Positions 131 to 22,202 are shown, counted from the stretch's first letter. The stretch: DNA of 22,202 nucleotides from Candidatus Thalassarchaeaceae archaeon (GCA_030747675.1 JASLKH010000097.1:1-22202); one strand, 5' to 3'. The notes: generated from the letters alone by a model not told the origin. A program made the numbers and translations.

Positions 131-3100
131 TTAATCAATGTCTGAATATACACTAAATAGCTCCAATTTCGGTTCTGCATCGAACCTTTCTTCGGCAAAA
201 TCTGCAGAAATATGAATTCCAGACATGAAGAAAGAAGAAGATGGTGTCAAAATACCAGCAACGTAGACTGTTCTGTTGATTCCTTTATTGAGAGGGTCAC
301 TGACCACGACAGAATCACCTATCTGTAAATTGAGTGTTGGTGCAGTGTCAATTCCGCCCGCTGGTTGAGGGGTGAGGGAATAATCGACAATTGCGAGGTA
401 GGAATCATTGAATACGGCACTCCACAACTCAGCCTCAGTTTCACCAAAGAATTCATCCCAAGCAGCAAGTGACAAGGCCCCATGATCTGTGAAGTTTCTA
501 TCAAAACCTCGAAGATACACAATCAATTCGTCACCAGAACCGTCTAAACGCTCAGCATTAACAGGAGTGGTTGACATAAATGAGACTGAATCAAAATCTT
601 CAATTGAGGCCTCACTGAGGTTCCAATTAGACAAATCCTTATCCAAAGAATAGTCAAATTTACCACTAATAGCAACGATTTCATATTCCCCGCCAACTTC
701 TTCACTAAGATCATCCATGTAATTATTCAACAATGCACTATATCCAGACAAAACAACTACTGCGAACACAACAATCGAAAACATACCCATTGACATTGCC
801 GTACGGAATGGTGTGGCCAATGGATAAGAAAGGGAAGTTGGCAATACAGATGCGGCTCTTTTCGACCTTGCTGAAAGCAAACGTGCAATAGCTCTAGCAA
901 CGATTGGAGCCAGACTTGAAAGCAAAAGAACACCAGCTGCTACAAGGAAAATACCGAGCAAAATGAATGAGTAGGCACCTTGCTCCCAATCTGCACTGAT
1001 AGGATCTCCAATCCACCCCCAGAGAACCATAGAAGTGCCCAAAATAGTGAGAATTAAGCGTGGTAATATCACTGGCCGATGCAGTCGAATACGACCAAAA
1101 TGGATGTTTTCTGGTAAAATTACTCGCAATATCCAGAACATCGGAGGAAGTAAGGAAAACAAGAAAATGAATCCACCCAAAAGCCACCAAGCATGTCTTG
1201 AACCATCTTCAGGAGAACCCGCTAAAAATGCTAAACCAAAGAAAAGCATAGAAGAAAGAGCCAAAAACAGAGAAATTAAGATTGACCACCATGGCAGTCC
1301 ACCTGTAAATCGAACAGGAATATCACGAATTGCTGCGACTACATTCAATCGGCTAATCCAAAGGGAAGTAAGCCATAAGGTCACCCAGGTGACTAAGAAA
1401 CCGGTTACAAATCCACCCAACAGACTTTGGAATGTCCAATCAAATATTGCTCCATTCAAACGACCCCCTGCTTCACCAAGGGCGGTCCCCATGAATTGCA
1501 TGATGACCCAACCAAAACCAATTCCCAGCACAGCACCAAGCGCGCTTGAAATTAATCCTAAAAATGCCCCTTCCTGAACAAATAATGCACGTAAATCAGC
1601 ACGCTGCATCCCAATTGCCCGAGCCATGCCCATCTCAGGTTTGCGTTCATCCGCTAGCATAACAAAAATATTGATGACAAGTAAAATACCTGCAAAAATG
1701 ACAAATGACCCAAATATCAAAAACAACATTGAGAAACTCTCACCAGCACCTTCTGTAGCCTCTAATGCACGTTGTTTGATAGGAACTACACGCAAGTTCG
1801 TTGTCTGCAAATCAGCTTGCTCATCGGACCAAGCAATGATTGCTGATTCCATTACCGTATAATTTGTTGAATTGAACAATGCGGGACCAGATATAATCAC
1901 AAAAGTTCGATCACCGCTATTTCCTGAAGCAAGGTTTTCAGCATCACTCAAAGAGACCACTGCAAATGATATTGCATCAAAGGACGGTTGTCCAGGTGGT
2001 GAAGGAAATGTCAAATTTGAATTATCAACATACATCAATTCCCCTGTCAGCATCCCCCTTGCTACAGGAAGATAACCGCGTAAACGAATGAATTCGCCTT
2101 CATCCAAATCAAGTGTATCTCCAGCCCATTTTGAGATGACAACATGTTGATCATCAACATCGGGGAATCCCATGCTACCCTCACCAGAGAGGGCGATTGC
2201 TGTTAGTGGTACACGCAAGGCGTCAACCTTGATTCTGTTTGGGATTCTGCCAGATAATTCACCATCATCAGAAATTGCAACACCATTACCTGTAGTCACT
2301 ATTAATCTGGCTCCAACCATGCTTATGGCCGCCTCTGAAGTGGATGCTGCAGGGGGTAAAGGCATTGAGTACGAAGCGAAATTCGTAGTATTCCAATACC
2401 ACAAGCCTTCAGATTCAACCCACAATACGGACTCTGAATTAGCAAGAATTGAACCGTTTGGTAACCCCAGTGTGTTTGCAGGGATAAGAGTTCCATTATC
2501 CAGTAAATGAAGACTCTGTCCATTGTCTACCCATGCCGATCCTGCGTGGGAAAACAAGTTTCGACGCTCGACTAAATCGTCAGAGCAAAATTGTGACAGA
2601 GGGGTGTTTGTAGTATTTTCAAGAGAAAAAGAGCAACTTCTGCTTCCAAGTAAACGCTCGATTCTAATGTGTAATTGACTGTCGTCTATCGCCATATCGA
2701 GTCGCATCGCAGAACCGTCATCAAGAATTGAAAAAGTCAACCAGCCACTTAGGTTCAAATCTGACTGATGCAATATAACAGCACCTTCATCCAATTCCAG
2801 AGCGAATATTGAAGATTCTGATTGTTCGAGGGCCACTATTTCACGACCATTCAGATGATCAATGTCATTTGAATCAGGGGAAACATCCACCTCACGCAAA
2901 CCCTCTGAATGGGCAACTAAACCCTTTTTTTCAGATAAAATAAGTAAATCATTGATTGCTTTTTCATCTGCATCGGACTCCCAAATCCACCACTCTCCAA
3001 ACGAGTCCTGGAGTGATAAGCCGGAGGCAGTAGCATACCAATCCCAACCCTCAGTTTGCGCAATTTCAGTAATTGTACTTGATGCCAAACCAGATAGGTT

Positions 3101-4273
3101 TACACTTCCCTGCGCAGTGTTGTACAGTGGCACCTGAAGCATTTCGAGTATCTGGGCATCGGCATTAGTCTCATCTACAATTGCAGTTAAATTAGCAACT
3201 TCGCCTACATCCAGTAATCCGAAACCTGTTGTACGGGCAACTGCAATCATCCCATTCGCTTCATCAGCCTCAATTGTTAATCCTGCATCTTCTGCCAGTA
3301 GTTTCTCATTAATTGCATCTTTCAGATTGTCCCGGATTGCTGTGGTGCCATCACCTTTCACAGAAATTCCAATATGATTGACTAAGTCGGTTTTTTCCGT
3401 GTATGTTTGTGCATCTGACAAAGAAGTGAAAATTAAGGGGTATTTAGACCCCAAATAGCCAGTTGAAATATCCGATATTATCGCCTGAACAGTCATATTT
3501 AGAGACTTTTTCTCGATTCCAGAAGTGTAATCAATTATCATCCAATGAACCTCAAGTGTATCTCCCACATCGGCTGAGACTCTCTCAGCCATCTCCTCAT
3601 TGATCACAACATTCCCTGATTCAATGTCTGCATAATGAATACCATTTTCACCACCGATTGGGTCGAAACTACCCAATAATGAGCGGTTTGCATCAAAGGC
3701 CATCCACTGCCCATTCGGCTCTGCGAGGCCCGATTTTTCATGAATTGCCGAAATAGTCAGAGCCAGACCGGGTCTAGCACCAATAATATCGGGCATATCA
3801 ACTAATTCATCCGATAATTCACTGGCTCTTGTTGAATTCCATTCAGTCCATAGCCCCGTTATTGGGTCATTTCCACGGATGTAGTAATCAGTATCCCCCA
3901 ACGGCACAAGGAAATGTTGTTCCATTGTGGCATCCAAACTATCGCCAATAACCAATGACGAGGAAACAATTGCAGAACCAACTAAAAGTCCTGCAATAAC
4001 AAGTGCAGTATTGCGTTTACGGCGTACTAAATTATTGCGAGCCATTGTTGCAAGAATGCGGTGGCGGCTAGAAAGAAGCCATTGAACTACTGTCCATACA
4101 ACAAGACCAGCAATCGCTGAAATACCAACAGAAGTCAACGTACGACCCAAGGTCCAGTCATTTTCATCAATTTGTGCTGAAAAGGAGAGCCATGCGACAA
4201 TGGTCAGAGAAGAAATGCCTGAAATTGCCGTAACCAGTTTACGTGGCCACGTCCAAGCACCAGCCAAGGACAT
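131..4273 (-). CDS. Giant MacB/FtsX-family ABC transporter permease (fused double permease, about 1380 aa), probably C-terminally truncated
   Basis: RRKRNTALVIAGLLVGSAIVSSSLVIGDSL first-TM motif; FtsX signature INIFVMLADERKPEMGMARAIGMQRADLRALFVQEG; second PFRTAMSMGMFSIVVF repeat; lies directly downstream of the ATPase. ATG 4273 is preferred over the track's GTG 4282 because AGGTGA (4284-4279) sits 5 nt upstream of it. Confidence 0.85.
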   Translation of the reverse strand: MSLAGAWTWPRKLVTAISGISSLTIVAWLSFSAQIDENDWTLGRTLTSVGISAIAGLVVWTVVQWLLSSRHRILATMARNNLVRRKRNTALVIAGLLVGSAIVSSSLVIGDSLDATMEQHFLVPLGDTDYYIRGNDPITGLWTEWNSTRASELSDELVDMPDIIGARPGLALTISAIHEKSGLAEPNGQWMAFDANRSLLGSFDPIGGENGIHYADIESGNVVINEEMAERVSADVGDTLEVHWMIIDYTSGIEKKSLNMTVQAIISDISTGYLGSKYPLIFTSLSDAQTYTEKTDLVNHIGISVKGDGTTAIRDNLKDAINEKLLAEDAGLTIEADEANGMIAVARTTGFGLLDVGEVANLTAIVDETNADAQILEMLQVPLYNTAQGSVNLSGLASSTITEIAQTEGWDWYATASGLSLQDSFGEWWIWESDADEKAINDLLILSEKKGLVAHSEGLREVDVSPDSNDIDHLNGREIVALEQSESSIFALELDEGAVILHQSDLNLSGWLTFSILDDGSAMRLDMAIDDSQLHIRIERLLGSRSCSFSLENTTNTPLSQFCSDDLVERRNLFSHAGSAWVDNGQSLHLLDNGTLIPANTLGLPNGSILANSESVLWVESEGLWYWNTTNFASYSMPLPPAASTSEAAISMVGARLIVTTGNGVAISDDGELSGRIPNRIKVDALRVPLTAIALSGEGSMGFPDVDDQHVVISKWAGDTLDLDEGEFIRLRGYLPVARGMLTGELMYVDNSNLTFPSPPGQPSFDAISFAVVSLSDAENLASGNSGDRTFVIISGPALFNSTNYTVMESAIIAWSDEQADLQTTNLRVVPIKQRALEATEGAGESFSMLFLIFGSFVIFAGILLVINIFVMLADERKPEMGMARAIGMQRADLRALFVQEGAFLGLISSALGAVLGIGFGWVIMQFMGTALGEAGGRLNGAIFDWTFQSLLGGFVTGFLVTWVTLWLTSLWISRLNVVAAIRDIPVRFTGGLPWWSILISLFLALSSMLFFGLAFLAGSPEDGSRHAWWLLGGFIFLFSLLPPMFWILRVILPENIHFGRIRLHRPVILPRLILTILGTSMVLWGWIGDPISADWEQGAYSFILLGIFLVAAGVLLLSSLAPIVARAIARLLSARSKRAASVLPTSLSYPLATPFRTAMSMGMFSIVVFAVVVLSGYSALLNNYMDDLSEEVGGEYEIVAISGKFDYSLDKDLSNWNLSEASIEDFDSVSFMSTTPVNAERLDGSGDELIVYLRGFDRNFTDHGALSLAAWDEFFGETEAELWSAVFNDSYLAIVDYSLTPQPAGGIDTAPTLNLQIGDSVVVSDPLNKGINRTVYVAGILTPSSSFFMSGIHISADFAEERFDAEPKLELFSVYSDID

Positions 4274-4282
4274 TGAAATCAC

Positions 4283-4981
4283 CTATTCCTCTTCTCCAGA
4301 ACGGCGATCTTCTACTATTCTACCATCCTTCATTACGAGGGTGCGTGAACACCTAGCTGCAACTTCACTATCATGAGTTACCAAAACCATAGTCATGCCT
4401 CTATCCTTATTCAATTGCAATAGTAAATCAAGGACTTCGTCACTTGTTTTCGTATCAAGATTACCCGTAGCTTCATCGGCTAGAATAACAGCTGGGTTGT
4501 GAACAAACGAGCGAGCAATTGTTACTCGTTGTTGCTGTCCACCTGACAATTCTGCTGGAAGATGTCCTGCACGGTCCCCTAGACCAACAGATTCGAGAGC
4601 ATCAAGGGCCATTAATCTAGCATCACGTGGTGATTTACCAGCCATTAACAACGGTAATTCGACATTTTCAACTGCAGTTAATACGGGGAGTAAATTGAAT
4701 GCTTGAAATATGAAACCAAGTCTTTCACCGCGTGTTTGTGTTAACTCCCAATCTGACATCGCAGATAATCCAACTCCGTCAATCAATACTTCACCTGAAG
4801 TAATGTCATCCAATCCAGATAAGCAATTCAGTAGCGTGGTTTTCCCACAACCACTTGGGCCCATTACTGCAACCATTTCGCCAGACTCAAGCGTGACGCT
4901 TACTTTGCGAAGAGCCTCAACCCGATTCGTTCCCGTTTCGTAAATCTTCCACAATTCTTTGGCTTCAAGGACAGCGGGCAT
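4283..4981 (-). CDS. ABC transporter ATP-binding protein, LolD/MacB/SalX family
   Basis: Walker A GPSGCGKTT, Q-loop GFIFQAFNL, signature LSGGQQQR, Walker B VILADE, H-loop VTHD; 232 aa. Confidence 0.95.
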   Translation of the reverse strand: MPAVLEAKELWKIYETGTNRVEALRKVSVTLESGEMVAVMGPSGCGKTTLLNCLSGLDDITSGEVLIDGVGLSAMSDWELTQTRGERLGFIFQAFNLLPVLTAVENVELPLLMAGKSPRDARLMALDALESVGLGDRAGHLPAELSGGQQQRVTIARSFVHNPAVILADEATGNLDTKTSDEVLDLLLQLNKDRGMTMVLVTHDSEVAARCSRTLVMKDGRIVEDRRSGEEE

Positions 4982-5626: not shown

Positions 5627-5657
5627 TCAATTGGAAAATTAATTTTATCAATTGGAA
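5626..5657. repeat. 11-bp direct repeat ATCAATTGGAA x2 around the palindrome AAAATTAATTTT; possible bidirectional terminator
   Basis: Copies at 5626-5636 and 5647-5657, palindrome at 5635-5646, between the convergent tatA and nob1 stop codons. Confidence 0.45.
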
Positions 5658-6139
5658 TTTTGGATTCTTTTAAGACGTAATTCGGCACCGCATTCCGGGC
5701 AATTTCCATACTCGCCTTTACGCTTAGTTTCAAGCGCTGGATGCTGACGACGACACCCTCTACATTCGAGGGTCCAAGTCCAAGAATCTTCTATTCCATC
5801 TTGTATGATTCCTGTCCAAGGATGGTCAAAATTAGTACAAACATTCTGTAGTCGATAATCATCAGTTACCAATTCCGCACCGTGTTCAATTGCTAGAGCC
5901 AGTATCTCAAGGTCAACTGCTGCTAAACCTGACAAATCACCTGTTTCAATAGCTGACGCCCGTGCCTGTTCGATCGCCTCGGTAGACGGCGAAAGAAATC
6001 GAGGGCCCTGAGATTGAATTAGCATGGCTCGTTCAGGGGAGTGTTTCATGACTTCAGCAACTTGCCCAGGGACACACAGACATCCTATCAAGTCCACAAG
6101 GGGCCATGCTAAGAGAGCCCCTGTATCCAGTGCGCGCAT
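5648..6139 (-). CDS. nob1: Nob1-family endoribonuclease (PIN domain plus Zn ribbon; SSU rRNA 3' maturation)
   Basis: ALDTGALL, VDLEILALA and TDDYRLQN PIN motifs; CRGC...CPECG zinc ribbon; 163 aa. Confidence 0.9.
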   Translation of the reverse strand: MRALDTGALLAWPLVDLIGCLCVPGQVAEVMKHSPERAMLIQSQGPRFLSPSTEAIEQARASAIETGDLSGLAAVDLEILALAIEHGAELVTDDYRLQNVCTNFDHPWTGIIQDGIEDSWTWTLECRGCRRQHPALETKRKGEYGNCPECGAELRLKRIQNSN

Positions 6140-6868: not shown

Positions 6869-6943
6869 GCTCGCGTGGTGTAGCTAGGCCCATCATGGTG
6901 GGTTTTCATCCCGCTGACTCGGGTTCGAATCCCGACGCGAGCA
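6869..6943 (+). tRNA. tRNA-Glu (anticodon TTC), no intron, CCA not encoded
   Basis: Acceptor stem GCTCGCG/CGCGAGC plus discriminator A; anticodon stem GTGGG/CCCGC with loop TT-TTC-AT (TTC at 6905-6907); T arm TCGGG-TTCGAAT-CCCGA; D arm of archaeal Glu type; 75 nt. Confidence 0.95.
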
Positions 6944-6957
6944 CTTTTCGAAAAAGT
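6943..6957. terminator. Putative bidirectional T-tract terminator
   Basis: ACTTTTCGAAAAAGT gives T4 on + right after the tRNA and T5 on - after the convergent Smr gene. Confidence 0.45.
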
Positions 6958-6971
6958 AGCACTGCGTGAAT

Positions 6972-7748
6972 TCATTGACGTTCGCGATAGGTTGCTAGCA
7001 TCGCACTCAGTACTATTCCCAATATCACTCCAACATACATCCCTTGTGTATGTGCACCATCGCCAGCTAGATCCCTAAACGCTAGAGAAAAAGCCACAGT
7101 AATAGGGCTGCCTAGGAAAATGAAGCGGAATAACCAGCGACCAAAGGTTGGGGCCTTTCCCATTGGCCGTAATGTCAAGGAGCCTTTCTTGAGTAATATC
7201 TCCCAATCCAATTGCTTGACAACTTGGCGGAGTCTATCTATCACCATGGGGCGGATCTTTGGAGCTGTGGCTGAATGCAAACCACGTCCAGTAATTATCC
7301 GAACCCGACCAATCCATTCACGCGAGGATATAATATGCTCAAGGATTTCTTTGGCTAACTTCAAATTCAAATCATGTAAATCAACTGTTAATGTTCCTCT
7401 TGATATCCTAACATGGCTAGATGTAGTCCATGAACGCTCATCCGCCCACGGTAGATTCAGGGCCATATTTTCAATTGGAGACAAGAGTAATTGCAGTCGA
7501 TCAATAGGTTCAACAGTAGCATCGGCATTTGAAATTCTTCGATTTCTTTCAAAATATCGAAACAAAGTATAACTCAAGAGGACTACTGTAGTGGCAACAC
7601 CTATCAAAAATCCAATACGAAATGAGTTTTTTAAATCTGCATCCCCCATTCCTGTTGCGAAAATGTGCATAAAGAAAGTCATTGTACCAACCATGGTCCC
7701 AAGAACTGCTGAAAGGATGAAAACATCCCGTATATTCAACTCGACCAT
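6972..7748 (-). CDS. Membrane protein (4 predicted TM) with a central Smr/MutS2-C nuclease domain
   Basis: TVDLHDL...VRIITGRGLHS Smr motifs between two hydrophobic hairpins (about aa 9-63 and 206-253); 258 aa. Confidence 0.8.
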   Translation of the reverse strand: MVELNIRDVFILSAVLGTMVGTMTFFMHIFATGMGDADLKNSFRIGFLIGVATTVVLLSYTLFRYFERNRRISNADATVEPIDRLQLLLSPIENMALNLPWADERSWTTSSHVRISRGTLTVDLHDLNLKLAKEILEHIISSREWIGRVRIITGRGLHSATAPKIRPMVIDRLRQVVKQLDWEILLKKGSLTLRPMGKAPTFGRWLFRFIFLGSPITVAFSLAFRDLAGDGAHTQGMYVGVILGIVLSAMLATYRERQ

Positions 7749-7836: not shown

Positions 7837-8610
7837 ATGGAGCCTCCGTTCCGCAATGGACTATCATCTCGTACTCGCGAGAAGAAAGTGGGGGGTTGGT
7901 TAACAGGTATTTTTGGGTTTTATCTGATTTCTATGTTTCTCGTACCTGCACTATTACCTGCCAATTCTGTACCCGAATTATCAGGGCGCGCCAATACTTT
8001 GGATTATTATGACGAGGATGGATGGGGGAATAAAGAGCATCCTGAGGGTGGAGGGATGGGACATAACCAAAGCGAACATGGGGTATTCGAATGGAGTAAT
8101 TTGTCGAATCCATATTACTCATTTGTGTATGCATTTGGTGACTTCAATTGTCACCAAAAACATGAACGTTCATGGGAAATAAATGGTAACCAAATGCCCG
8201 TGTGCGTACGTGATGTAGGCATATTCCTCGGGTTAACCATAGGCGCGTGGTGGTGGTCAAGGCGTGGATTGAATCGATGGACATTGCGCGATTCATTCCT
8301 CACATTGTTACCCGATAGTAGAATACTAAACCTGTACCTAGTAGATCGACGAATGATTACAATGCTCGCAATTGGATTGGGAATGTCCTTACCTCTTGTT
8401 CTAGACGGTGGCATTCAAGCACTCACATCCTATGAATCAGTAAATCCCATGCGATTGGCAACTGGGATTCCATTTGGATTCATTATTTCGTGGTTCTTTG
8501 CAGCAAGCTTGTCTTCTCGCCCAGTAGATTTTGAGGGTAATCCGAGTAAAGTGAAATTGCCCAGTGGTGCTAGATTGATGTCTGAAAAACCATCAGATGA
8601 ATCTGAATGA
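7837..8610 (+). CDS. DUF2085-family predicted membrane protein
   Basis: CHQKHERSWEINGNQMPVCVRDVGIFLG signature, LDGGIQ and R-x-x-TG-x-x-FG motifs, several TM segments; 257 aa. Confidence 0.85.
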   Translation: MEPPFRNGLSSRTREKKVGGWLTGIFGFYLISMFLVPALLPANSVPELSGRANTLDYYDEDGWGNKEHPEGGGMGHNQSEHGVFEWSNLSNPYYSFVYAFGDFNCHQKHERSWEINGNQMPVCVRDVGIFLGLTIGAWWWSRRGLNRWTLRDSFLTLLPDSRILNLYLVDRRMITMLAIGLGMSLPLVLDGGIQALTSYESVNPMRLATGIPFGFIISWFFAASLSSRPVDFEGNPSKVKLPSGARLMSEKPSDESE

Positions 8611-8611
8611 T

Positions 8612-9970
8612 TTAGGTGGCACCATTGTGCCACCATTCCAATAATTCTTGGCGTGTAGAAGGTGAAGGAGTATTACTACAACCAGAACCCAGCAAAGACA
8701 AACGCGATAGACATGCGTCGAGTTGTTCTACTCTTTCTGGTGCTGGACGAGGACCAATGATACCTTTGAGAGCATGTTTCCAAGATGAATTGGGGTTGGA
8801 CTTCCTCCATTTCGACAATGATTCCTTTAGAGGCCAAAGCGCGATACCAATTCTTCCAAATGCTTGCCAATCAGGGCGTAATTCAGAACGTGAGGCGTCA
8901 CTACCCACTAAAGGACGGTGAATGCGCACCCACCCAGATTGCTCATGGAATATTTTCACCATCCGTCGTGTATGGCGATCAGTTACCATGCGAACTGGTC
9001 CTAACCATGAACGTAATTCACTAATTTCAACACCAGGTAGTAACGAAAGCGTCCCAACAATAGCGAGTACTGGATGGCTCAGAGGATCTGAAGGAGCATC
9101 TAACCTTGAAGGGGTCTCAGTGCCTTGAATGGCATCAATATACATCTGCGTAGAATCTCGAACTACCTCCCAAGGTTTACGAGAATCTAACCAATCCAAA
9201 TTGCTACGTGCAGGACGAGATTCAACGACATCGAGTGTAGTTTGCCCTCGCTGGGATGCCATTGCACGCCCAAGCAAATGCAAATCTACTTCCTCAGTCG
9301 ACACGTTCAACGGCACGGGCCGGTCATGCAGGAATCGACGAATCTCACCTTGCAACTTTTTCCTCAAATCGGATTTTTTTCCGTCATTAATTACAGGCCC
9401 AACAACACGGCCTTGGTTAAATGGAGATGGCATCGGAATATCTCCCCCCAAAAGAGCATGGTACCCTGCTCGAATTTTTATCTGGAATTCATCCGTTTCA
9501 AAATACTCTTGTTTACCAAGTGTCGACAAACGCAAAGTACCATGTTCAATCCGCCGTAATGCGGCTTCTGGATCGCAATCAACCCACACGCAAAGATCTG
9601 GGATCATTGCTGCTGCATTCATCCCTGCAACTTCTTCAATTCCCAAGTCACCGACAATTCCTTGATACACTAGGGAGGAGTGAACATTTCTCTCACTAAC
9701 AACAACATGGCCCTTAGAAAGTCGCGGTCGGATCCAAGTGTGTGAATGATCCATCCTGTCTGCTGCAAAGTAAACAGCCTCTCGAATTGGACCTGCTTCT
9801 CCAGTTTGGACTGCCTGTACAGCAAGCAAACCTAATTCTGCATCTCTCCTCGGTTCTGCAGTGATATCGACACCAGCAAACGTGAATTCCTGCTCAAGAA
9901 TTTCCGCAATCATTTGAGTTGCTAGACCCTTGCCAGAACCATCGCCACCTTCGATTGTGATGAGATACAT
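8612..9970 (-). CDS. tmk: Thymidylate (dTMP) kinase-like protein with an uncharacterised C-terminal extension of about 240 aa
   Basis: LITIEGGDGSGK P-loop, AEP, FAADRMDH, ERNVHSSLVYQG, PDLCVWVDCDPEAALRRI and EYFE..EFQ.KIRAGY motifs; GAGGTG RBS upstream; 452 aa. Confidence 0.8.
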   Translation of the reverse strand: MYLITIEGGDGSGKGLATQMIAEILEQEFTFAGVDITAEPRRDAELGLLAVQAVQTGEAGPIREAVYFAADRMDHSHTWIRPRLSKGHVVVSERNVHSSLVYQGIVGDLGIEEVAGMNAAAMIPDLCVWVDCDPEAALRRIEHGTLRLSTLGKQEYFETDEFQIKIRAGYHALLGGDIPMPSPFNQGRVVGPVINDGKKSDLRKKLQGEIRRFLHDRPVPLNVSTEEVDLHLLGRAMASQRGQTTLDVVESRPARSNLDWLDSRKPWEVVRDSTQMYIDAIQGTETPSRLDAPSDPLSHPVLAIVGTLSLLPGVEISELRSWLGPVRMVTDRHTRRMVKIFHEQSGWVRIHRPLVGSDASRSELRPDWQAFGRIGIALWPLKESLSKWRKSNPNSSWKHALKGIIGPRPAPERVEQLDACLSRLSLLGSGCSNTPSPSTRQELLEWWHNGAT

Positions 9971-11862: not shown

Positions 11863-14800
11863 GTGGCGACGCAAAAACTCTTCAGAAAACAAACCAAAAG
11901 TCTCCTCATCATTTCAATAATGATTCTAGCTTCATTGCTACCATTAGCCTCTGCCAATGAGGCTGAAGAAAGCAGTAGCCAAACTGGATGGGAACCAGTA
12001 GTATACTCACTGGAGGGTTTTGATCCTGAAACGATGGGTAAGGCGTATTTATTCACCAATGGAAGTGAACCACTTTACAGTGCAACTAGATTTCTGAAGC
12101 AGCAATGGCAGGATGATGATTACCCTCAACTTCGTTTACCTTTTGAAGAAACTACTGGCCGTACATCTGCTCGTGCTTGTGAAAATGCTTGGTCGACGGG
12201 CACTGCAGGCACGGTACAAACTACGGGAGGTCAGATCTCAGTTACTGCAATGCATGTCACCCAAAATGCTGCCATATTAATTGAGAGTGGGCAATCTGTT
12301 TCATCCACGACACTGAACAATATTGGTTCAACATGGGAGACTACCATCTACCCAACTAACACCAATTACTTTGGAAATCCACCGGACGTGGATAACAACT
12401 GCCAGATTGAAATTGTAATCTACGCCATAGATGGCCCTTCAAACATTGGTGGTTATTTCATGCCAGGCATGTCTGCAACGCGTGAAACAATCTATGTTGA
12501 TATCGATGATTTGGGTAGTGCATCGTGGAGAAATACTGTATTAGCTCATGAATTTGAGCATTTATTGCATAACGCAAGAGATCCTTTCGAATATGCATGG
12601 GTTGATGAAGGGAACGCTGACATGGCATCTTTCCTCAATTTTGGTGCATCCGATGGAGTCATTGGCCATGCAAATGCATGGGCTACAAATTCAACCTGTA
12701 GTGTCCGTTGGTGGAATCAAAGAGATGATGGTTGTGATTATGGTGGTGGATTCCTATTCATGCTGTTCCTAGCTGATAACCTAGGAGGTGGATCTGCTAT
12801 TCAACAACTGGTTGCAGATAGTCGGACAGGAGGTAATGCAATTGTACATCTAGCACAAACACTCGGACCTGGTGCAACACCGATTGGCCAAACAATGTCT
12901 GATATCTTTGCAAACTTCAGTGCATCCATGGTCCTTGATCATGGGACGCAAGCAGAATTTGGGCTGGATAATATCGACATGTTTGAAACATGTGGGAGCA
13001 CTGTGTTCTGCCGTTTGCAACTTGAAGCGTCCAACCTAAATTGGGCAACCATGTGGAATGGAGGACCATATGACACCGAAGGATGGGGAGTCAGTGCGTT
13101 TAGATTCAAAGATGGGACTGGAGCACCGTTGAACATTAAGGTCCAACCTACCGAGATTGGATTCGCAGGTGCGATGTTGAAAAAAGATGCAAATTCAGGA
13201 GCATGGTCAATGGAGCGACTTCGATTCGACCCAGCAACAGGAGTAGGAACTGGGCTTATCCCTGGATTTGGAAATGTTACCGATGATGTTTATCTCATAG
13301 TATGGTATGAAAGTCAAGTTGATGATTGCGACTATACTCAACCAAATTGTAATTTCCCAGGCTCTCCAGTTTATCCAATTGCATCATACAATGTATTCGC
13401 TGGATTAATCACAGAACCTGCCACAATTTCACTAACTGATGAAATTACGTCAGATCGTGATGGGGATGCTCTTGACGACACTGTCCAAGTAGATTTTGAA
13501 GTCAATTCTTCTGCATTCTATGAAGTATTAGATGTTGAAATGAAGGTCTATGTGAACAATACACTGCAAGATTCAATGGACATTTCACTTGATGCAGGGA
13601 ATAGTATCCCTACACAAAGTAGTGTATGGTTTACACCCCCCTGGGATGGTGATTGGACCCTACGCTTCACAATGCGGAATCAACTTGGTGAAGTTGTTGA
13701 TGAGGCATTGGCTATCCCACCAACTTTACACAACATGGCCCCAGTATCTGTTGGAACTGCTGCATCGAACGAAACACAAACATGGTTGGGTTTGCAATTC
13801 TTCGGCGCTGGTTATGACCTATGGGGACTTGGATTGACAAATGAAACATTCACTCACAACGTTACACCAATTGGATATTTATGGGACTTCGATGATGGTG
13901 CCTCGGGATCTGGATTAAAGGACCCATTGCGAGCATGGCAAAATGAAGGAAGTTACAATGTAACCTTACGCGTCAAGGACCAAGGTGGCTACCTAAGCCC
14001 GGTTCAGACTTGGACGATTAATGTCTCAGATACAGTAATGCCCATCCCAAAAATTAGCGTGGGCTCTCCCCCTGCTCCAATTTCCAACCCTTATGTGCTT
14101 CTTACCTCACAACGAGTGCAATTCTCTGCTACTCAAACGGAAGACAATGTTCCATTAGAACATTTGACATTCACATGGGACTTCGGTGACGGGACAATAG
14201 AAAGTGGTGTTGGACTATATTCGACATCCCATGAATGGGGGGTTGGCTCATCAAATGGCACACCATATAGCCTAAAATTAACAGTGAATGATGGAACATT
14301 CGAAACTAACGTCTCAGTTATTGTTTTAATTATGAATCGTGTACCTCGACAAATTTGGTTTGATGAAATGGAAACTCACACCCTTACGCCATTACAATTA
14401 CCAAACATCTTCACAGATGACGATGGAACAATTGTATCTACTCAATGGTGGTTTGACGAAGATGTCAACCTAGACGGTGGAATTGTAACAATGGGGTCAA
14501 CATTCAACACAAACCAAAGCACTGATGCAAACCCAACACCTGCTTGGTCAACGACTGGGATGAAGAATGTGACAATTTTCGCTACAGATGATGCAGGAGA
14601 TACATCAATGGGAATCGTTAGTATCAATGTTTTGAATCAAAAACCAGTCGCAATTTTCCCCCGGCCTAGTGACGGTACAACCAATACCATGTACACATTC
14701 CTATCATCATCGTTTGATCCAGATGGTAACACCGCTAATCTGCTACACAATTGGACCATTACAGGAGTTGGGACACCAATCACGAATAATCAAGCCACGC

Positions 14801-16029
14801 ATCTCTTTGAAGAGCCTGGACAATATACTGTGACTCTTGTTGTTACAGACGAACGAGGTGATGATTCACTACCAAAAAGCTACATTATCCACATAGCCAA
14901 CCCTCTTCCAATTCCAATCATGGATGTCAGAGAAGCATGGCTGAATGATGAGCCTCTTCAAGTCCCCGGTTCTAGTGAAATTGAATATCAATGGCGCCGT
15001 GGATTCACCCAAAATGGAGAACTTTTCGTTGCACCTGGAGCAGTACTATACTTTTCATCAAATGGATCGCATGATGGAGATATTGCATATTCCGGTATGC
15101 TTAATCCTGACCCGATGGCCATGGATTGGAACGGAATTACTGAAACCATCTGGGACTGGGGTGATGCATCGCCACCAACCACCACAACAAATGCATGGCA
15201 TATGTTCGACCTCCCCGGATTGTACACTGTCACATTAACAGTTAGAGACGGCTTTGGTATGGGAGATACAAATACCACAACAATCGATGTGTGGGTGTCA
15301 AGCGCCCCAGTAATCACCTCTGAAACAATCAGTGATGTTGATTTCGTGATAGTGGAAGAAATCAACGTCTTTGTTGGTTCGGCAGAAGATGCTGACATCA
15401 TTAACAACATCATGGCATGGAGAGATAATGATGTCACCTTTGATTCAGATGGCGACTCAATTACAGATAACGACAAAGATGTAAATTTGAATTATGACCT
15501 CACATATTGGTGGGATATTGACGACAGCGTCGATGCAGATGAAAATGGGAATCTGTTTGATGATTGGGTGACTAGCGACGTTCGCAGTGGGCGTGGAATT
15601 GATGCATTCTGGAACGATACTTCTGAGGTGAAAATAATCCTCATGGTTTGTGATGGAACCAATGTTTGTACAACTGAAGTCTATGAAATCAATGTTCGTT
15701 CAAGTAGTTCCGGGAGCGGAGGGGGCGTTGATGATTTGTCCATATCGGACTTGATGCCGTCCACTGATTCAGGTAGCTTGTACATCTTTATCCTCATCAT
15801 TTTGGTATTGACACTTGGATGGCTAGTCATGCGTCAGCCAGAGGAAGTTGAAGTTGATGCTGAAGATGCTGCAAGCACATACGATGTAGCAGAGGTCCAT
15901 ACCGAAGGAGGGATTCTTGGTATGGATCAACACACACCCCCACCCAAACCAAAACATCTGGGTCAAGATGATAGAAGAAGTAAGGAATCTGGCTACGTAC
16001 GACCAGTCACAAGCAGAAGGCGACGGTGA
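11863..16029 (+). CDS. Cell-surface zinc metallopeptidase (M30-like gluzincin) with about 5-6 PKD-like domains and a C-terminal TM anchor
   Basis: Signal peptide ending PLASA; IYPTNTNYFG..DVDNN..GGYF; HEFEH (12547-12561) plus WVDEG (Glu at 12607-12609); repeated WDFDDG/WDFGDG/WDWGD...Y.VTL.V.D PKD motifs; DxDxD Ca-type loops; TM LYIFILIILVLTLGWLVM; GTG start with AGGGGG RBS; 1388 aa. Confidence 0.85.
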   Translation: MATQKLFRKQTKSLLIISIMILASLLPLASANEAEESSSQTGWEPVVYSLEGFDPETMGKAYLFTNGSEPLYSATRFLKQQWQDDDYPQLRLPFEETTGRTSARACENAWSTGTAGTVQTTGGQISVTAMHVTQNAAILIESGQSVSSTTLNNIGSTWETTIYPTNTNYFGNPPDVDNNCQIEIVIYAIDGPSNIGGYFMPGMSATRETIYVDIDDLGSASWRNTVLAHEFEHLLHNARDPFEYAWVDEGNADMASFLNFGASDGVIGHANAWATNSTCSVRWWNQRDDGCDYGGGFLFMLFLADNLGGGSAIQQLVADSRTGGNAIVHLAQTLGPGATPIGQTMSDIFANFSASMVLDHGTQAEFGLDNIDMFETCGSTVFCRLQLEASNLNWATMWNGGPYDTEGWGVSAFRFKDGTGAPLNIKVQPTEIGFAGAMLKKDANSGAWSMERLRFDPATGVGTGLIPGFGNVTDDVYLIVWYESQVDDCDYTQPNCNFPGSPVYPIASYNVFAGLITEPATISLTDEITSDRDGDALDDTVQVDFEVNSSAFYEVLDVEMKVYVNNTLQDSMDISLDAGNSIPTQSSVWFTPPWDGDWTLRFTMRNQLGEVVDEALAIPPTLHNMAPVSVGTAASNETQTWLGLQFFGAGYDLWGLGLTNETFTHNVTPIGYLWDFDDGASGSGLKDPLRAWQNEGSYNVTLRVKDQGGYLSPVQTWTINVSDTVMPIPKISVGSPPAPISNPYVLLTSQRVQFSATQTEDNVPLEHLTFTWDFGDGTIESGVGLYSTSHEWGVGSSNGTPYSLKLTVNDGTFETNVSVIVLIMNRVPRQIWFDEMETHTLTPLQLPNIFTDDDGTIVSTQWWFDEDVNLDGGIVTMGSTFNTNQSTDANPTPAWSTTGMKNVTIFATDDAGDTSMGIVSINVLNQKPVAIFPRPSDGTTNTMYTFLSSSFDPDGNTANLLHNWTITGVGTPITNNQATHLFEEPGQYTVTLVVTDERGDDSLPKSYIIHIANPLPIPIMDVREAWLNDEPLQVPGSSEIEYQWRRGFTQNGELFVAPGAVLYFSSNGSHDGDIAYSGMLNPDPMAMDWNGITETIWDWGDASPPTTTTNAWHMFDLPGLYTVTLTVRDGFGMGDTNTTTIDVWVSSAPVITSETISDVDFVIVEEINVFVGSAEDADIINNIMAWRDNDVTFDSDGDSITDNDKDVNLNYDLTYWWDIDDSVDADENGNLFDDWVTSDVRSGRGIDAFWNDTSEVKIILMVCDGTNVCTTEVYEINVRSSSSGSGGGVDDLSISDLMPSTDSGSLYIFILIILVLTLGWLVMRQPEEVEVDAEDAASTYDVAEVHTEGGILGMDQHTPPPKPKHLGQDDRRSKESGYVRPVTSRRRR

Positions 16030-16033
16030 TTAC

Positions 16034-17014
16034 ATGCAAATGATCCGGCGACAAACGGTCGTGTCTGCTGTCGCCGTGATGATTTTATTACCCATGTTGA
16101 CTATTATTTCTCAATCTATTGGGATTGATATGATTGGGGCTGCACAAGCAGCATCCGATTGTTCTCTTTCAGGAGATGATAGTGCACCAGCATGGGGTTC
16201 AACTGTTGACAAAGATGAGCTCACAGGAGGTGGTTTTAGAAATTCAGACGACAGGTATGAATTTGGAGATATGGATGAGGGTGATTGGGATGAAGGAGGT
16301 AAAGATATGAATCGATTGATTCATTCCTTCCACACCTCATTTGTGATAGGAAATGATTCCGCTGTCTCTCTGAGAATGAATATGACTACCGGCTACAAGT
16401 ACACATTTTGTATCAACCTACAACCTGTGATTGGAGAAGCAAATCAACAAGAACCAACTGGCGATGTATATCTGCTCCAAGAATATGATTATGAGCGATA
16501 TGCCTTTGATTTTGACTCCCGTAATAATGAATTTGGGGGCTTTCGCTCAGATATTCAACATTCACCTCCTGTCATTCAAAACATCCTTTTTTGGCACCCA
16601 TTCAGAGATGTTCATGCCTATGAAAAAATCGATAATGTTGACTTTTCGGTAGCATTGGATCACGATGAAACTAGTAGTACTTGGGACCCCTTTTCAGATA
16701 AGCCACCTCAGCATAGGTCAATGTATCTGATTATCGATGGATGGGATAATATTAGGGATTACGATAGTGAAGAAATCAACCGAAATATGACCGCAGATGT
16801 CACCGTAGTTGTTGAAGAGCGATTCGCCCTCCCCAATTGGACCGTCGCAGTAATCTGTTGTGGTAGTTTGTTGGCTATTTTAGCAGCCCCATTCTTAGTC
16901 CATCATAGGTACATGAAAGCGGGTATGCCCGAAAATGTAACTGGTGACTTAATGCCTCACTTAGAAACTGAAGCTGAAAGAGATTCACTCCCTTCAATGA
17001 AAAGCGTTGACTAA
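16034..17014 (+). CDS. Hypothetical surface protein (signal peptide, acidic extracellular domain, C-terminal TM)
   Basis: GGTGA RBS (16025-16029) overlaps the upstream stop, which supports ATG 16034 rather than the track's 15917. N-terminal hydrophobic segment ending AAQA; TM WTVAVICCGSLLAILAAPFLV; about 326 aa. Confidence 0.75.
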   Translation: MQMIRRQTVVSAVAVMILLPMLTIISQSIGIDMIGAAQAASDCSLSGDDSAPAWGSTVDKDELTGGGFRNSDDRYEFGDMDEGDWDEGGKDMNRLIHSFHTSFVIGNDSAVSLRMNMTTGYKYTFCINLQPVIGEANQQEPTGDVYLLQEYDYERYAFDFDSRNNEFGGFRSDIQHSPPVIQNILFWHPFRDVHAYEKIDNVDFSVALDHDETSSTWDPFSDKPPQHRSMYLIIDGWDNIRDYDSEEINRNMTADVTVVVEERFALPNWTVAVICCGSLLAILAAPFLVHHRYMKAGMPENVTGDLMPHLETEAERDSLPSMKSVD

Positions 17015-18035: not shown

Positions 18036-20094
<2,059 letters not shown>

Positions 20095-20096
<2 letters not shown>

Positions 20097-20101
20097 GGTG
20101 A
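20095..20101 (+). promoter_or_regulatory. Shine-Dalgarno GAGGTGA coupling gyrB to gyrA
   Basis: Overlaps the gyrB stop, 4 nt before the gyrA ATG; the same stop/RBS overlap occurs at 4284-4279 (-) and 16025-16029. Confidence 0.7.
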
Positions 20102-20105
20102 TTGA

Positions 20106-22202
20106 ATGAGTGATGAAGAAGTACAAGCAAATCCAACTGATAACCAAGTTAGGCATACCGTTGACGACGAGATGAGGACGTCCTACATCAATTATGCAAT
20201 GTCTGTCATTATTGGGCGAGCATTACCTGAAGTCCGAGATGGGTTAAAACCGGTACATCGCCGTGTTCTTTTTGGCATGCATGAAGCAGGACATACATCT
20301 GACCGCTCTTACTCGAAATCAGCTAGATCGGTTGGAGAAGTCATGGGTAAATATCACCCTCATGGTGACCAATCAATCTATGATACAATGGTTCGGATGG
20401 CACAATATTTCAGCCTCCGATACCCATTAGTCGACGGGCAGGGGAACTTTGGTAGCATCGACGGCGACCCTCCTGCTGCTATGCGATATACAGAAAGTCG
20501 GCTCGACAGGTTATCAAAACATATGCTTGAAGATATCAAAAAAGATACGGTCAATTTCCAACCGAATTTTGATGATTCAGAACAAGAACCCGAGGTATTG
20601 CCTGCAAGACTACCGAACCTTCTACTCAATGGGAGTGATGGGATTGCAGTGGGAATGGCGACAAAAATACCCCCACACAATCTGCCAGAAGTTGCTTCTG
20701 CAATACACCTACACGTATATCGAATTCTTGAAGATGGGAGTGAAAATGGTGACCCTGAAAATCCCCCTGCCATCGATATTGGAGAATATATGGAACACCT
20801 CAAGGGACCTGATTTTCCAACAGGGGCAACCATACATGGTGTCGACGGGATACGTGACATGTATGAAACTGGACATGGTCGATTCCATATCCGCGCGCAA
20901 TGTGAGGTCCATGATGATGGCAATGGAAAGCGTATTGTGGTCACTGAAATTCCCTATCAAGTCAAGAAGGCCGGAATGTTAGTAGGGATAGCCGAGCTTG
21001 TTAGTAAAGAAACTGTCAAAGGAATACGTGACATTAGAGATGAATCTAGCAAGGAAGGAATTCGAGTTGTTATCGAAGTTAAGCAAAATGCTGACCCACA
21101 TGCAGTTTTGAATCAGTTATACAAATCTAGTCGCTTGCAAGAATCATACTCAGCAAACATGATGGGTATTATGAATAGGGAACCAGTACAACTGACGCTT
21201 CCGGTGATTCTTCACGCATATGTTCGACACCGAGAGGATGTTATTCGACGAAGAACACAATTTGATCTTACGAAAGCTGAAGCCCGTGCGCATGTGTTAG
21301 AGGGGCTGGTCAAGGCTCAAACAAGAATTGACGATATTGTCACAGCAGGAAAGGGTGCAGAAAGTCGTGAACACTTTGAGAAAATACTGCGAGGTGAAGA
21401 TACATTTGAAAACATCACTGCATTTGATTTCACCGAACCTCAAGCTAAAGCCATTGCTGAAAGGAGACTTTACCAACTTTCTAAGATGGATACAAAGAAA
21501 GTTGATGATGAATTCACTGAACTCCAAATTTCCATCTCTGAGTACAATGCTATTCTCGGCAGTCGGAATCGACAATTGGAAATTCTCCTGAGTGAATTAG
21601 ATGAGATGGTTGAGAAACATGGCGATGAACGACGAACAAATATTGACCCTATGCCACTTTCAATGGACAGAGAAGATCTTGTCGAAGAACGAGCAATTGT
21701 CATATCGCTCTCTGAGGATAATTACATTCGCCACCTCCCGGTTGAAGCATTCCGTGTTCAGAATCGGGGCGGAAAGGGGTTGAAAGGTGTCACAACAAAA
21801 GATGAAGATTTCCCGAAATCAATTCTTACATGTTTTAGTAAAGACCGCTTGTTGATATTCACTGACCAAGGTCGCGTCTACGGGCTCAAAGCATGGGAAA
21901 CTCCACAAGGGAGTCGTCTAAGTCGTGGCAGTCATATCCGAAACTTAATTGAAAAGCTCAGGGAAGATGAAAAAGTAGTCACAATCCTCCCTATTTCGAA
22001 GGAAGTACAAGAAAATCCCGAAGGGCATTACCTTATTTTCGCAACACACGAAGGTATTGTAAAACGATCTAAACTTGGAGATTATACACGTATCAATCGA
22101 AATGGGAAATTCGCATTGAAATTCAAGACTGATAGCGACACACTTGTCGCTGTACGTGAAGCCACTGACGATGACCATGTTGTACTCGTCTCAAAGAATG
22201 GA
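20106..22202 (+). CDS. gyrA: DNA gyrase subunit A (partial; runs off the window end, absent from the ORF track)
   Basis: Hand-translated, open for 699 codons: [49 protein letters not shown] (catalytic Tyr 20487-20489), GPDFPTG and GyrA-box QNRGGKG (21759-21779). Confidence 0.98.

Follow-up and report, generated by a model that had tools for sequence, protein, structure and literature searches.

What would an Smr domain do between two pairs of membrane helices? The question is raised by a gene at positions 6972 to 7748, on the minus strand, of a 22,202-nucleotide stretch of DNA from Candidatus Thalassarchaeaceae archaeon (GCA_030747675.1 JASLKH010000097.1:1-22202), which is referred to here, at its full length, as the window. 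Smr nucleases are central to the detection and resolution of ribosome collisions; to our knowledge, the members studied so far are all soluble, and the prevailing view is that archaea are largely without them. Judged from its sequence and from a structural model, the product of this gene is very probably a membrane-stapled, cytoplasm-facing Smr endonuclease of the TGxG/LDxH type, and the role ranked first for it, at a rough probability of 0.4, would be that of a membrane-restricted endoribonuclease in translation-coupled mRNA surveillance.

The open reading frame (ORF) comprises 258 codons, encodes a product of 258 amino acids (aa) and ends in a stop codon at 6972-6974. Its homologues form 34 clusters with 47-100% identity, all of them from marine metagenomes or from metagenome-assembled genomes (MAGs) of Thermoplasmatota. 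The ratio of nonsynonymous to synonymous substitution rates (dN/dS), quoted only for pairs with unsaturated synonymous sites, was 0.08 for the pair L011/L012 (0.05 in the helices and 0.06 in the Smr domain) and 0.11 for the pair L015/L016. The 258-aa frame is a genuine gene, with purifying selection acting on the helices and the Smr domain alike, and NCBIfam holds no model for its product. The parts of the gene, with the transmembrane (TM) segments numbered from the N-terminus, are as follows.

6972-7748, minus strand: coding sequence of the membrane-embedded Smr protein, from the ORF, the homologue clusters and dN/dS
7653-7724, minus strand: predicted TM1 (residues 9-32); hydropathy peak 9-27, model helix 6-32
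7560-7616, minus strand: predicted TM2 (residues 45-63), followed by the basic RYFERNRR; hydropathy peak 45-63, model helix 39-74
7398-7559, minus strand: linker and N-terminal Smr extension (residues 64-117), from a motif common to bacterial relatives and from structural matches
7161-7397, minus strand: Smr core domain, from PF01713, the secondary structure of the model and fold matches to 2vkc, 2zqe and 3fau
7374-7382, minus strand: D123-L124-H125, the DxH/LDxH catalytic motif, with invariant D and H, aligned to LDLH of N4BP2
7281-7292, minus strand: T153-G154-R155-G156, the TGxG loop of the family-2 type, invariant in the family and aligned to TGRG of N4BP2
7077-7139, minus strand: predicted TM3 (residues 204-224); hydropathy peak 206-224, model helix 202-228
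7041-7076, minus strand: predicted outward turn between TM3 and TM4 (residues 225-236, RDLAGxGA..QG), with the top conservation in the protein
6987-7040, minus strand: predicted TM4 (residues 237-254), with a glycine zipper and then RERQ; hydropathy peak 236-254, model helix 232-252

A first reading, made from the sequence alone, had described two TM hairpins bracketing an Smr domain with intact DLH (7382-7374) and ITGRGLHS motifs, and this architecture was recovered, with four hydropathy peaks flanking a domain of Smr fold. The region of ~140 residues between the hydrophobic pairs carries V-D-L-H at residues 122-125 (the DLH at 123-125) and I-T-G-R-G-L-H-S at residues 152-159 (7295-7272), with DLH exactly at the positions which that reading had given. 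The profile search that it had proposed gave a divided answer against the curated PF01713 cut-off of 25.7 bits: the single ORF translation fell just below it (24.7 bits, E 2.7e-5, over model positions 1-53 only), and the six-frame search of the genome passed it with 26.6 bits. A precomputed PF01713 match is also present in three homologue clusters. When a family profile built from 20 homologues was compared with the Smr domain of human N4BP2, the two aligned motif by motif with E 0.007-0.013, in which LDLH corresponded to VDLH, ITGRG to ITGRG, and RIKP to KIRP.

The alignment of the 20 homologues was also used to build an AlphaFold2 model, with a mean predicted local distance difference test (pLDDT) score of 78.8. 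Its elements follow one another as strand 119-123, helix 129-141, strand 149-152, helix 165-176 and strands 182-187 and 190-195, and its top matches among solved structures were Smr domains: N4BP2 2vkc (Z 8.6), the Smr domain of Thermus MutS2, 2zqe (Z 8.1, with a root-mean-square deviation of 2.1 A over 72 residues), N4BP2 3fau (Z 7.6, 28% identity), a plastid-polymerase PPR-SMR protein (Z 7.2-8.2) and E. coli YdaL (Z 6.6). The catalytic subdomain of RNase E (Z 6.0-6.4) and IF3-C, which are known Smr look-alikes, ranked after the Smr domains. The matches to N4BP2, pTAC2 and YdaL begin at model residues 87-98, within the extension that precedes the core, whose motif L99-P-W101-A...W107...H112-x-R114 is common to the anchored and soluble bacterial relatives discussed below.

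The residues expected of a working Smr nuclease are in place. D123, H125, T153, G154, R155, G156 and S159 are invariant in the 20 homologues; D123, H125, T153 and G154 reach at least 95% in a second alignment, with 23 orthologues of several genera; and the D and H of DxH are invariant in all aligned archaeal variants and bacterial relatives. Smr family 2, the usual eukaryotic type, was defined by LDxH together with TGxG in place of HGxG (PMC3200294), and the archaeal protein presents V122-D-L-H125 and T153-G-R-G156. Mutagenesis of N4BP2 revealed that K1722, S1735, R1741 and K1743 are needed for nucleic-acid binding (PMC3200294), and these residues, whose numbering agrees with the 2vkc chain, align to R148, S159, K164 and R166, all of which are either invariant or at least 90% conserved. 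With 13 K+R against 8 D+E, the Smr core is basic. By sequence and model, the central domain is thus predicted to have an Smr fold with complete catalytic and nucleic-acid-binding motifs, and we infer that it is an active endonuclease with RNA as its substrate.

The same motifs admit DNA as a substrate. It was reported that the Smr domains of N4BP2, MutS2 and YdaL nick or cut DNA, with branched DNA preferred in vitro (PMC3200294), and it is the counterparts of the DNA-binding residues of N4BP2 that are conserved here; the window's genome also has a Pfam match to Cas4. The protein could then be a membrane-side DNA-nicking enzyme directed at foreign or taken-up DNA, at the membrane-attached chromosome or replication intermediates, or at branched DNA. 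We consider this unlikely, given that work since 2019 has assigned DxH-bearing Smr proteins cellular roles on RNA at ribosomes, that no DNA-uptake, repair, restriction or defence gene neighbours the Smr gene and PADLOC gave no match, and that the gene lies in a stable block of the core genome and not in a variable island. As an observation on Cas4 in itself, the match (PF01930, G000:C44:24402-24734) spans no more than model positions 53-158 within a frame of ~408 aa, and matches to the Pfam Cas4 model in the order (29/201) are too patchy for their presence pattern to be compared with that of the Smr gene.

The placement of the domain relative to the membrane follows from the distribution of charge around the hydrophobic segments, which were called by the Kyte-Doolittle scale with a 19-residue window and a threshold of 1.5. 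Across the 23 orthologues, the mean K+R count is 4.3 after TM2, about 3 just ahead of TM3 and in its first residues, and 2.1 in the C-terminal tail, and the two short loops on the opposite side are net acidic (K+R 1.0, D+E 2.3-2.4). Under the positive-inside rule, this pattern puts the Smr domain and both termini in the cytoplasm. The bacterial relatives lead to the same orientation, since those with only a C-terminal anchor and without an N-terminal hydrophobic segment can only have their Smr domain in the cytoplasm. The Smr domain is therefore predicted to face the cytoplasm, held flat on the inner face of the membrane between two TM hairpins. The sequence-only reading had placed it there from RYFERNRR after TM2 and RERQ at the C-terminus, and had staked its case on three points, all of which came out as it expected: the model matches the Smr structures 2vkc, 2zqe and 3fau, DLH and GxG are invariant in the 20 homologues, and the domain lies inside and not outside the cell.

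The membrane part shows a conservation of its own. In the 23 orthologues, M19, M23 and F30 of TM1 stand at 95% or above, R208, F209, P215 and F224 of TM3 are conserved, and the glycine zipper of TM4, G236/G240/G244, is conserved at no less than 95% at each position. The turn between TM3 and TM4, F-R-D-L-A-G-x-G-A-x-x-Q-G, has a mean top-residue frequency of 0.77, where the Smr core reaches 0.63, with L227, A228, G229, Q235 and G236 all at or beyond 95%. Because this outward turn is the best-conserved segment, the membrane part probably does more than anchor the domain. It was considered whether the N-terminal hairpin duplicates the C-terminal one, and this was rejected, as the hhalign score of 15 equalled that of reversed controls. 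Structure prediction of two copies as a homodimer, on the family alignment, scored 0.01, and this was given no weight for or against a dimer.

A turn (LAGxG..QG) and a glycine zipper whose conservation exceeds that of the Smr core, together with equally strong selection on helices and domain, are what a signal-gated or non-catalytic module would display, in which the membrane part senses the state of the envelope or membrane, or binds a partner, and the Smr domain serves as a switchable nuclease or as a binder of RNA or ribosomes. A precedent for binding is found in MutS2, whose Smr domain binds collided ribosomes without cutting (PMC10897456; PMC11806357). The parallel is imperfect, as the MutS2 of Firmicutes is without DxH, whereas the D and H are here invariant in every variant and relative; no partner was identified either, and the adjoining DUF2085 membrane-protein gene persists in genomes without the Smr gene. 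This explanation is accordingly held to be very unlikely.

Membrane attachment of this Smr type extends beyond the archaea. An exhaustive profile search returned 189 proteins, in which the archaeal full-length clusters came first and were followed by many proteins of 150-190 aa, matching profile positions ~80-185 with E 1e-19 to 1e-10. These bacterial relatives, from genomes high in guanine and cytosine, carry the extension motif L-P-W-A-x-E-R-P-W...H-x-W, DLH, TGRG and the 'AP' junction, and mostly end in one or two C-terminal hydrophobic helices, with a few that are soluble. One of them, P0210, was located in MAGs of Myxococcota/'Deltaproteobacteria', the Atlas assigns the cluster of another, P0066, to Bacteria, Myxococcota, and one strong full-length copy was found in about 25/251 Myxococcota genomes sampled. 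In a tree of the Smr sequences, the archaeal ones lay on one side of a branch whose support in the approximate likelihood-ratio test (SH-aLRT) was 83, not starred, and the anchored bacterial clade received 94; the tree is unrooted, so that neither a donor nor an order of events can be derived from it. By sequence, the nearest kin outside the order are uncharacterised Myxococcota Smr proteins with a C-terminal anchor. Since these are anchored too, the membrane tethering of this Smr branch would be older and wider than the archaeal family, and the archaeal novelty, as far as the sequences tell, would be the additional N-terminal hairpin.

Within the archaea, 200 genomes of the window's order were surveyed, and two large families, of 99 genomes each, are reported here. 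With the family profile, a full-length gene was found in one copy in 68/99 genomes of the window's own family. The second family has, at the corresponding position, a diverged orthologue of ~210 aa whose gene adjoins that of the same DUF2085 membrane protein as in the window.

7837-8610, plus strand: DUF2085 membrane-protein gene, divergent from the Smr gene (PF09858, E 2.6e-21)

In this second-family variant, two N-terminal helices precede an Smr domain with invariant D, H and GRG, the linker is longer, and the C-terminal part has a single short hydrophobic helix; a profile specific to the 2+1-helix variant found it in one copy in 99/99 genomes. No profile match was obtained in ~238 genomes of 46 other families of Thermoplasmatota, and a six-frame search of the window's genome (1.68 Mb, 78% complete) yielded no second Smr above threshold. 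The gene thus occurs once per genome and in a single archaeal order, which is most likely Poseidoniales (Marine Group II), as the division into two families, the marine sources and the Atlas taxa all suggest.

In the window's family, the gene is absent from several genera, with 0/14 genomes in g9, 0/4 in g13 and most of g12 lacking it. Five of the gene-less genomes, 87-94% complete, retain DUF2085 and have a SufD-like gene at the Smr position, and in these five no other Smr reaches the Pfam cut-off. As whole genera have lost the gene and no substitute Smr was found in the five genomes, its function is dispensable, and the gene is an order-specific core gene, mostly retained yet dispensable. 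PADLOC gave no defence-protein match for the Smr protein, its DUF2085 neighbour, the second-family variant or a bacterial relative, and searches of phages and plasmids gave none for the Smr protein. A defence or mobile-element origin was rejected on these grounds and because the locus is a stable syntenic core block, and the lack of any phage, plasmid or defence-model match fits a housekeeping role.

Among characterised proteins, the best matches in sequence and structure are the Smr domains of N4BP2/B3BP (PDB 2VKC, 2D9I, 3FAU), at 22-29% identity and Z 7.0-8.6. The archaeal protein shares with the family-2 members N4BP2, Cue2 and NONU-1 the LDxH and TGxG motifs and a helical extension ahead of the core. 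The latter are soluble multidomain proteins of eukaryotes, with CUE/UBA, DUF1771 or kinase domains, and are recruited by ubiquitin, whereas the archaeal one is prokaryotic, fixed to the membrane on both sides, and without a Pfam match to CUE/UBA or DUF1771. E. coli SmrB is comparable as a small protein with an N-terminal extension, one Smr domain, and intact DxH and GxG, but it is soluble and of the HGxG type (GHG) instead of having TGxG chemistry. Moreover, the extension of SmrB bears an acidic-acidic-x-x-x-aromatic hook that wraps uS2 (10.1101/2021.08.16.456513), where the archaeal extension bears LPWAxExPW..H.R with two TM helices ahead of it. B. subtilis MutS2 offers the likeness of an Smr domain docking between collided ribosomes; it has an ABC ATPase, a clamp and KOW in addition, and the form in Firmicutes, being without DxH, does not cut mRNA (PMC11806357). 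None of the MutS2 modules is present in the archaeal protein, in which Pfam finds only Smr and weak membrane-protein noise and in which DxH is invariant. Since the extra modules that define the SmrB, MutS2 and Cue2 types were looked for and not found, the protein belongs to the Smr superfamily, with family-2 motifs, and to none of these three types. The closest overall likeness is with the anchored Myxococcota Smr proteins, which have the N-extension motif, DLH, TGRG, the 'AP' junction and C-terminal helices as in the archaeal family, but which are without the N-terminal TM hairpin and hence tethered at one end only. In the literature covered, no paper was found that describes an Smr domain built into a membrane or attached to one. 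The earlier statement that no characterised protein with this architecture is known thus holds for that literature, and it does not hold in the sense of an isolated architecture, given the anchored bacterial relatives and the 2+1-helix sister.

How might such a protein work? In the reading ranked first, the TM hairpin at each end would staple the Smr domain, the sole globular part, to the inner face of the membrane, where the nuclease would cut mRNA held there by ribosomes that are making membrane or secreted proteins. The trigger would be a stall in translation or a pile-up of ribosomes at the membrane, and the outward turn between TM3 and TM4 might be a docking site for another component of the membrane, or a gate for the nuclease. 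It was demonstrated that SmrB, Cue2 and NONU-1, in which DxH is intact and the Smr domain stands alone or at the C-terminus, cut mRNA at collided ribosomes, and that the Smr domain of SmrB and MutS2 occupies the cleft between two small subunits (10.1101/2021.08.16.456513; PMC11806357). Once truncated, the message would let trailing ribosomes run to its 3′ end, where the archaeal Pelota pathway would split them, and an RqcH/NFACT homologue would process the leftover large subunit.

The downstream factors can be found in these archaea. An NFACT/RqcH homologue is present in the window's genome, and full-length Pelota was detected in 39/41 genomes of the order sampled. The Pelota of the order appears to be a divergent one by its sequence, because its full-length scores, of 117-182 bits, lie mostly below the NCBIfam cut-off of 177.65. 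In the window's genome and one close relative, the search returned only an aRF1-like partial Pelota match (G000:C37:4739-5272), and the gap in these two is probably due to incomplete assemblies.

Several results weigh against an action on translating mRNA. Neither Pfam nor the alignment revealed an SmrB-type acidic-aromatic hook or a KOW, CUE or UBA module that could recruit the protein to ribosomes. The gene is not linked to ribosomal, Sec or signal recognition particle (SRP) genes, and its bacterial relatives are without a common neighbour. In the model, a tether of only ~9 residues separates the end of the last Smr strand, at residue 195, from the start of TM3 at about 205. On general structural knowledge, a tether of this length would keep the domain within a few nm of the bilayer, whereas a ribosome docked on the translocon has its mRNA channel and small-subunit interface considerably farther out, and the reach of the domain to the interface between two 30S subunits is therefore doubtful; the domain could still meet stretches of mRNA, or undocked disomes that arrive at the membrane. 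To these points are added the whole genera without the gene, with no other Smr found in five such genomes, and the fact that DNA nicking was the first activity characterised for family-2 Smr domains (PMC3200294). Because of the missing recruiting module, the missing ribosomal or Sec linkage, the losses and the short tether, translation-coupled cleavage is ranked first at only 0.4, and the functional interpretation of the sequence-only reading, which had pointed to membrane-localised ribosome rescue or RNA cleavage, is partly supported.

A short tether would suit free RNA better than a docked ribosome, and this brings in a nuclease that works independently of ribosomes. Membrane-tethered decay endonucleases are established in RNase Y of Bacillus and in the membrane-bound RNase E of E. 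coli. These two come from unrelated families and serve as an analogy of design only, that of an endonuclease at the cytoplasmic face of the membrane, in which RNase Y is held by a single N-terminal helix and RNase E by an amphipathic helix, and the archaeal Smr domain would be clamped between two hairpins. Under this explanation, the protein would be a membrane-localised endoribonuclease that starts or shapes general RNA decay and that Poseidoniales acquired from bacteria. It draws on the same fold, motifs and topology as translation-coupled cleavage, on the want of a ribosome-recruiting module, and on the resemblance of the Smr fold to the catalytic subdomain of RNase E (Z 6.0-6.4), a likeness that was noted before (PMC3200294). 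Against it stand the whole genera without the gene, as an enzyme of general decay should be lost less easily; moreover, no characterised Smr protein acts as a general decay nuclease, and the window showed no exosome or other RNA-decay genes linked to the Smr gene. On balance, we regard this explanation as doubtful.

The reading of translation-coupled surveillance can be carried further, to a proposal that we hold equally doubtful. The protein would then be the missing no-go-decay endonuclease of these archaea, an integral membrane sensor that docks beside the insertion machinery, cuts the mRNA of ribosomes stalled while inserting membrane proteins, and hands these ribosomes to Pelota/ABCE1 and RqcH, with the tail-anchored cousins acting likewise in Myxococcota. 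Rhodopsin, which is reportedly abundant in Poseidoniales, would be an example of such an inserted membrane protein. If true, archaea would have a first example of translation quality control by an Smr protein, and the protein itself would be the first ribosome-rescue nuclease, in any domain of life, to be integral to the membrane.

The finding has a bearing that is not confined to one of these functions. A motif-complete Smr protein, apparently built into the membrane, is encoded by a core single-copy gene in highly abundant archaea of the surface ocean, and its anchored kin in Myxococcota point to a whole unstudied branch of membrane-bound Smr proteins. Should the protein act on translating mRNA, it would reveal a membrane organisation of translation quality control in prokaryotes, and archaea would gain an endonucleolytic step upstream of Pelota; should its target be DNA or free RNA, it would be a new case of a spatially confined nuclease. 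The family constitutes a simple testable system, with a soluble core of ~120 residues and D123/H125 controls, and some of the bacterial genomes with an anchored Smr are complete and may represent culturable strains.

The genes around the Smr gene were compared over 13 loci sampled across both families. DUF2085 adjoined it divergently in 13/13, and beyond DUF2085 the same 13 loci all had a long thymidylate-kinase fusion, a CarboxypepD_reg protein, a glutaminyl cyclase and a PKD giant. On the other flank, the VTT/DedA protein, a Nob1-like PIN protein, TatA and ThiS are present in the closest genera only. The sequence-only reading had pointed to nob1 and tatA as nearby genes, and their linkage was rejected, as it is not conserved past close genera and other genes stand there in distant ones. 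DUF2085 was likewise rejected as an obligate partner, because the whole block is syntenic and because DUF2085 is kept where the Smr gene is absent and does not stand beside the bacterial relatives. The syntenic block gives no functional link for the Smr protein. Around the Myxococcota homologues, no neighbour gene recurred in more than 3/24 loci.

Some further features of the window were recorded in passing. A tRNA-Glu gene lies just downstream of the Smr gene on the opposite strand (6869-6944). Of the listed sequencing runs that contain the stretch, none is recorded as RNA, and one possible RNA run (X16) covers only 8418-8627, outside the Smr gene. The DUF2085 protein has a conserved CHQ...C.RD motif. 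The thymidylate-kinase fusion (8612-9970, minus strand) is a 452-aa protein that joins a thymidylate kinase domain (residues 6-174) to ~280 residues without a Pfam match, and its identity is 43-61% in 13/13 loci across the order. The Nob1-like protein (5648-6139, minus strand) is short, of 163 aa, with a PIN_6 domain and a weak C-terminal zinc-ribbon signal. A giant FtsX/MacB-type permease of 1383 aa (131-4282, minus strand) and its ABC ATPase (4283-4981, minus strand) are conserved in nearer genera only. The PKD-repeat surface protein has 1388 aa (11863-16029, plus strand), and the end of its gene is overlapped by ~110 bases by a 365-aa frame without a Pfam match (15917-17014, plus strand), so that the true start of the latter gene is uncertain. 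At the end of the window (18096-22202, plus strand), bacterial-type DNA gyrase genes, gyrB and gyrA, stand side by side in this archaeal genome.

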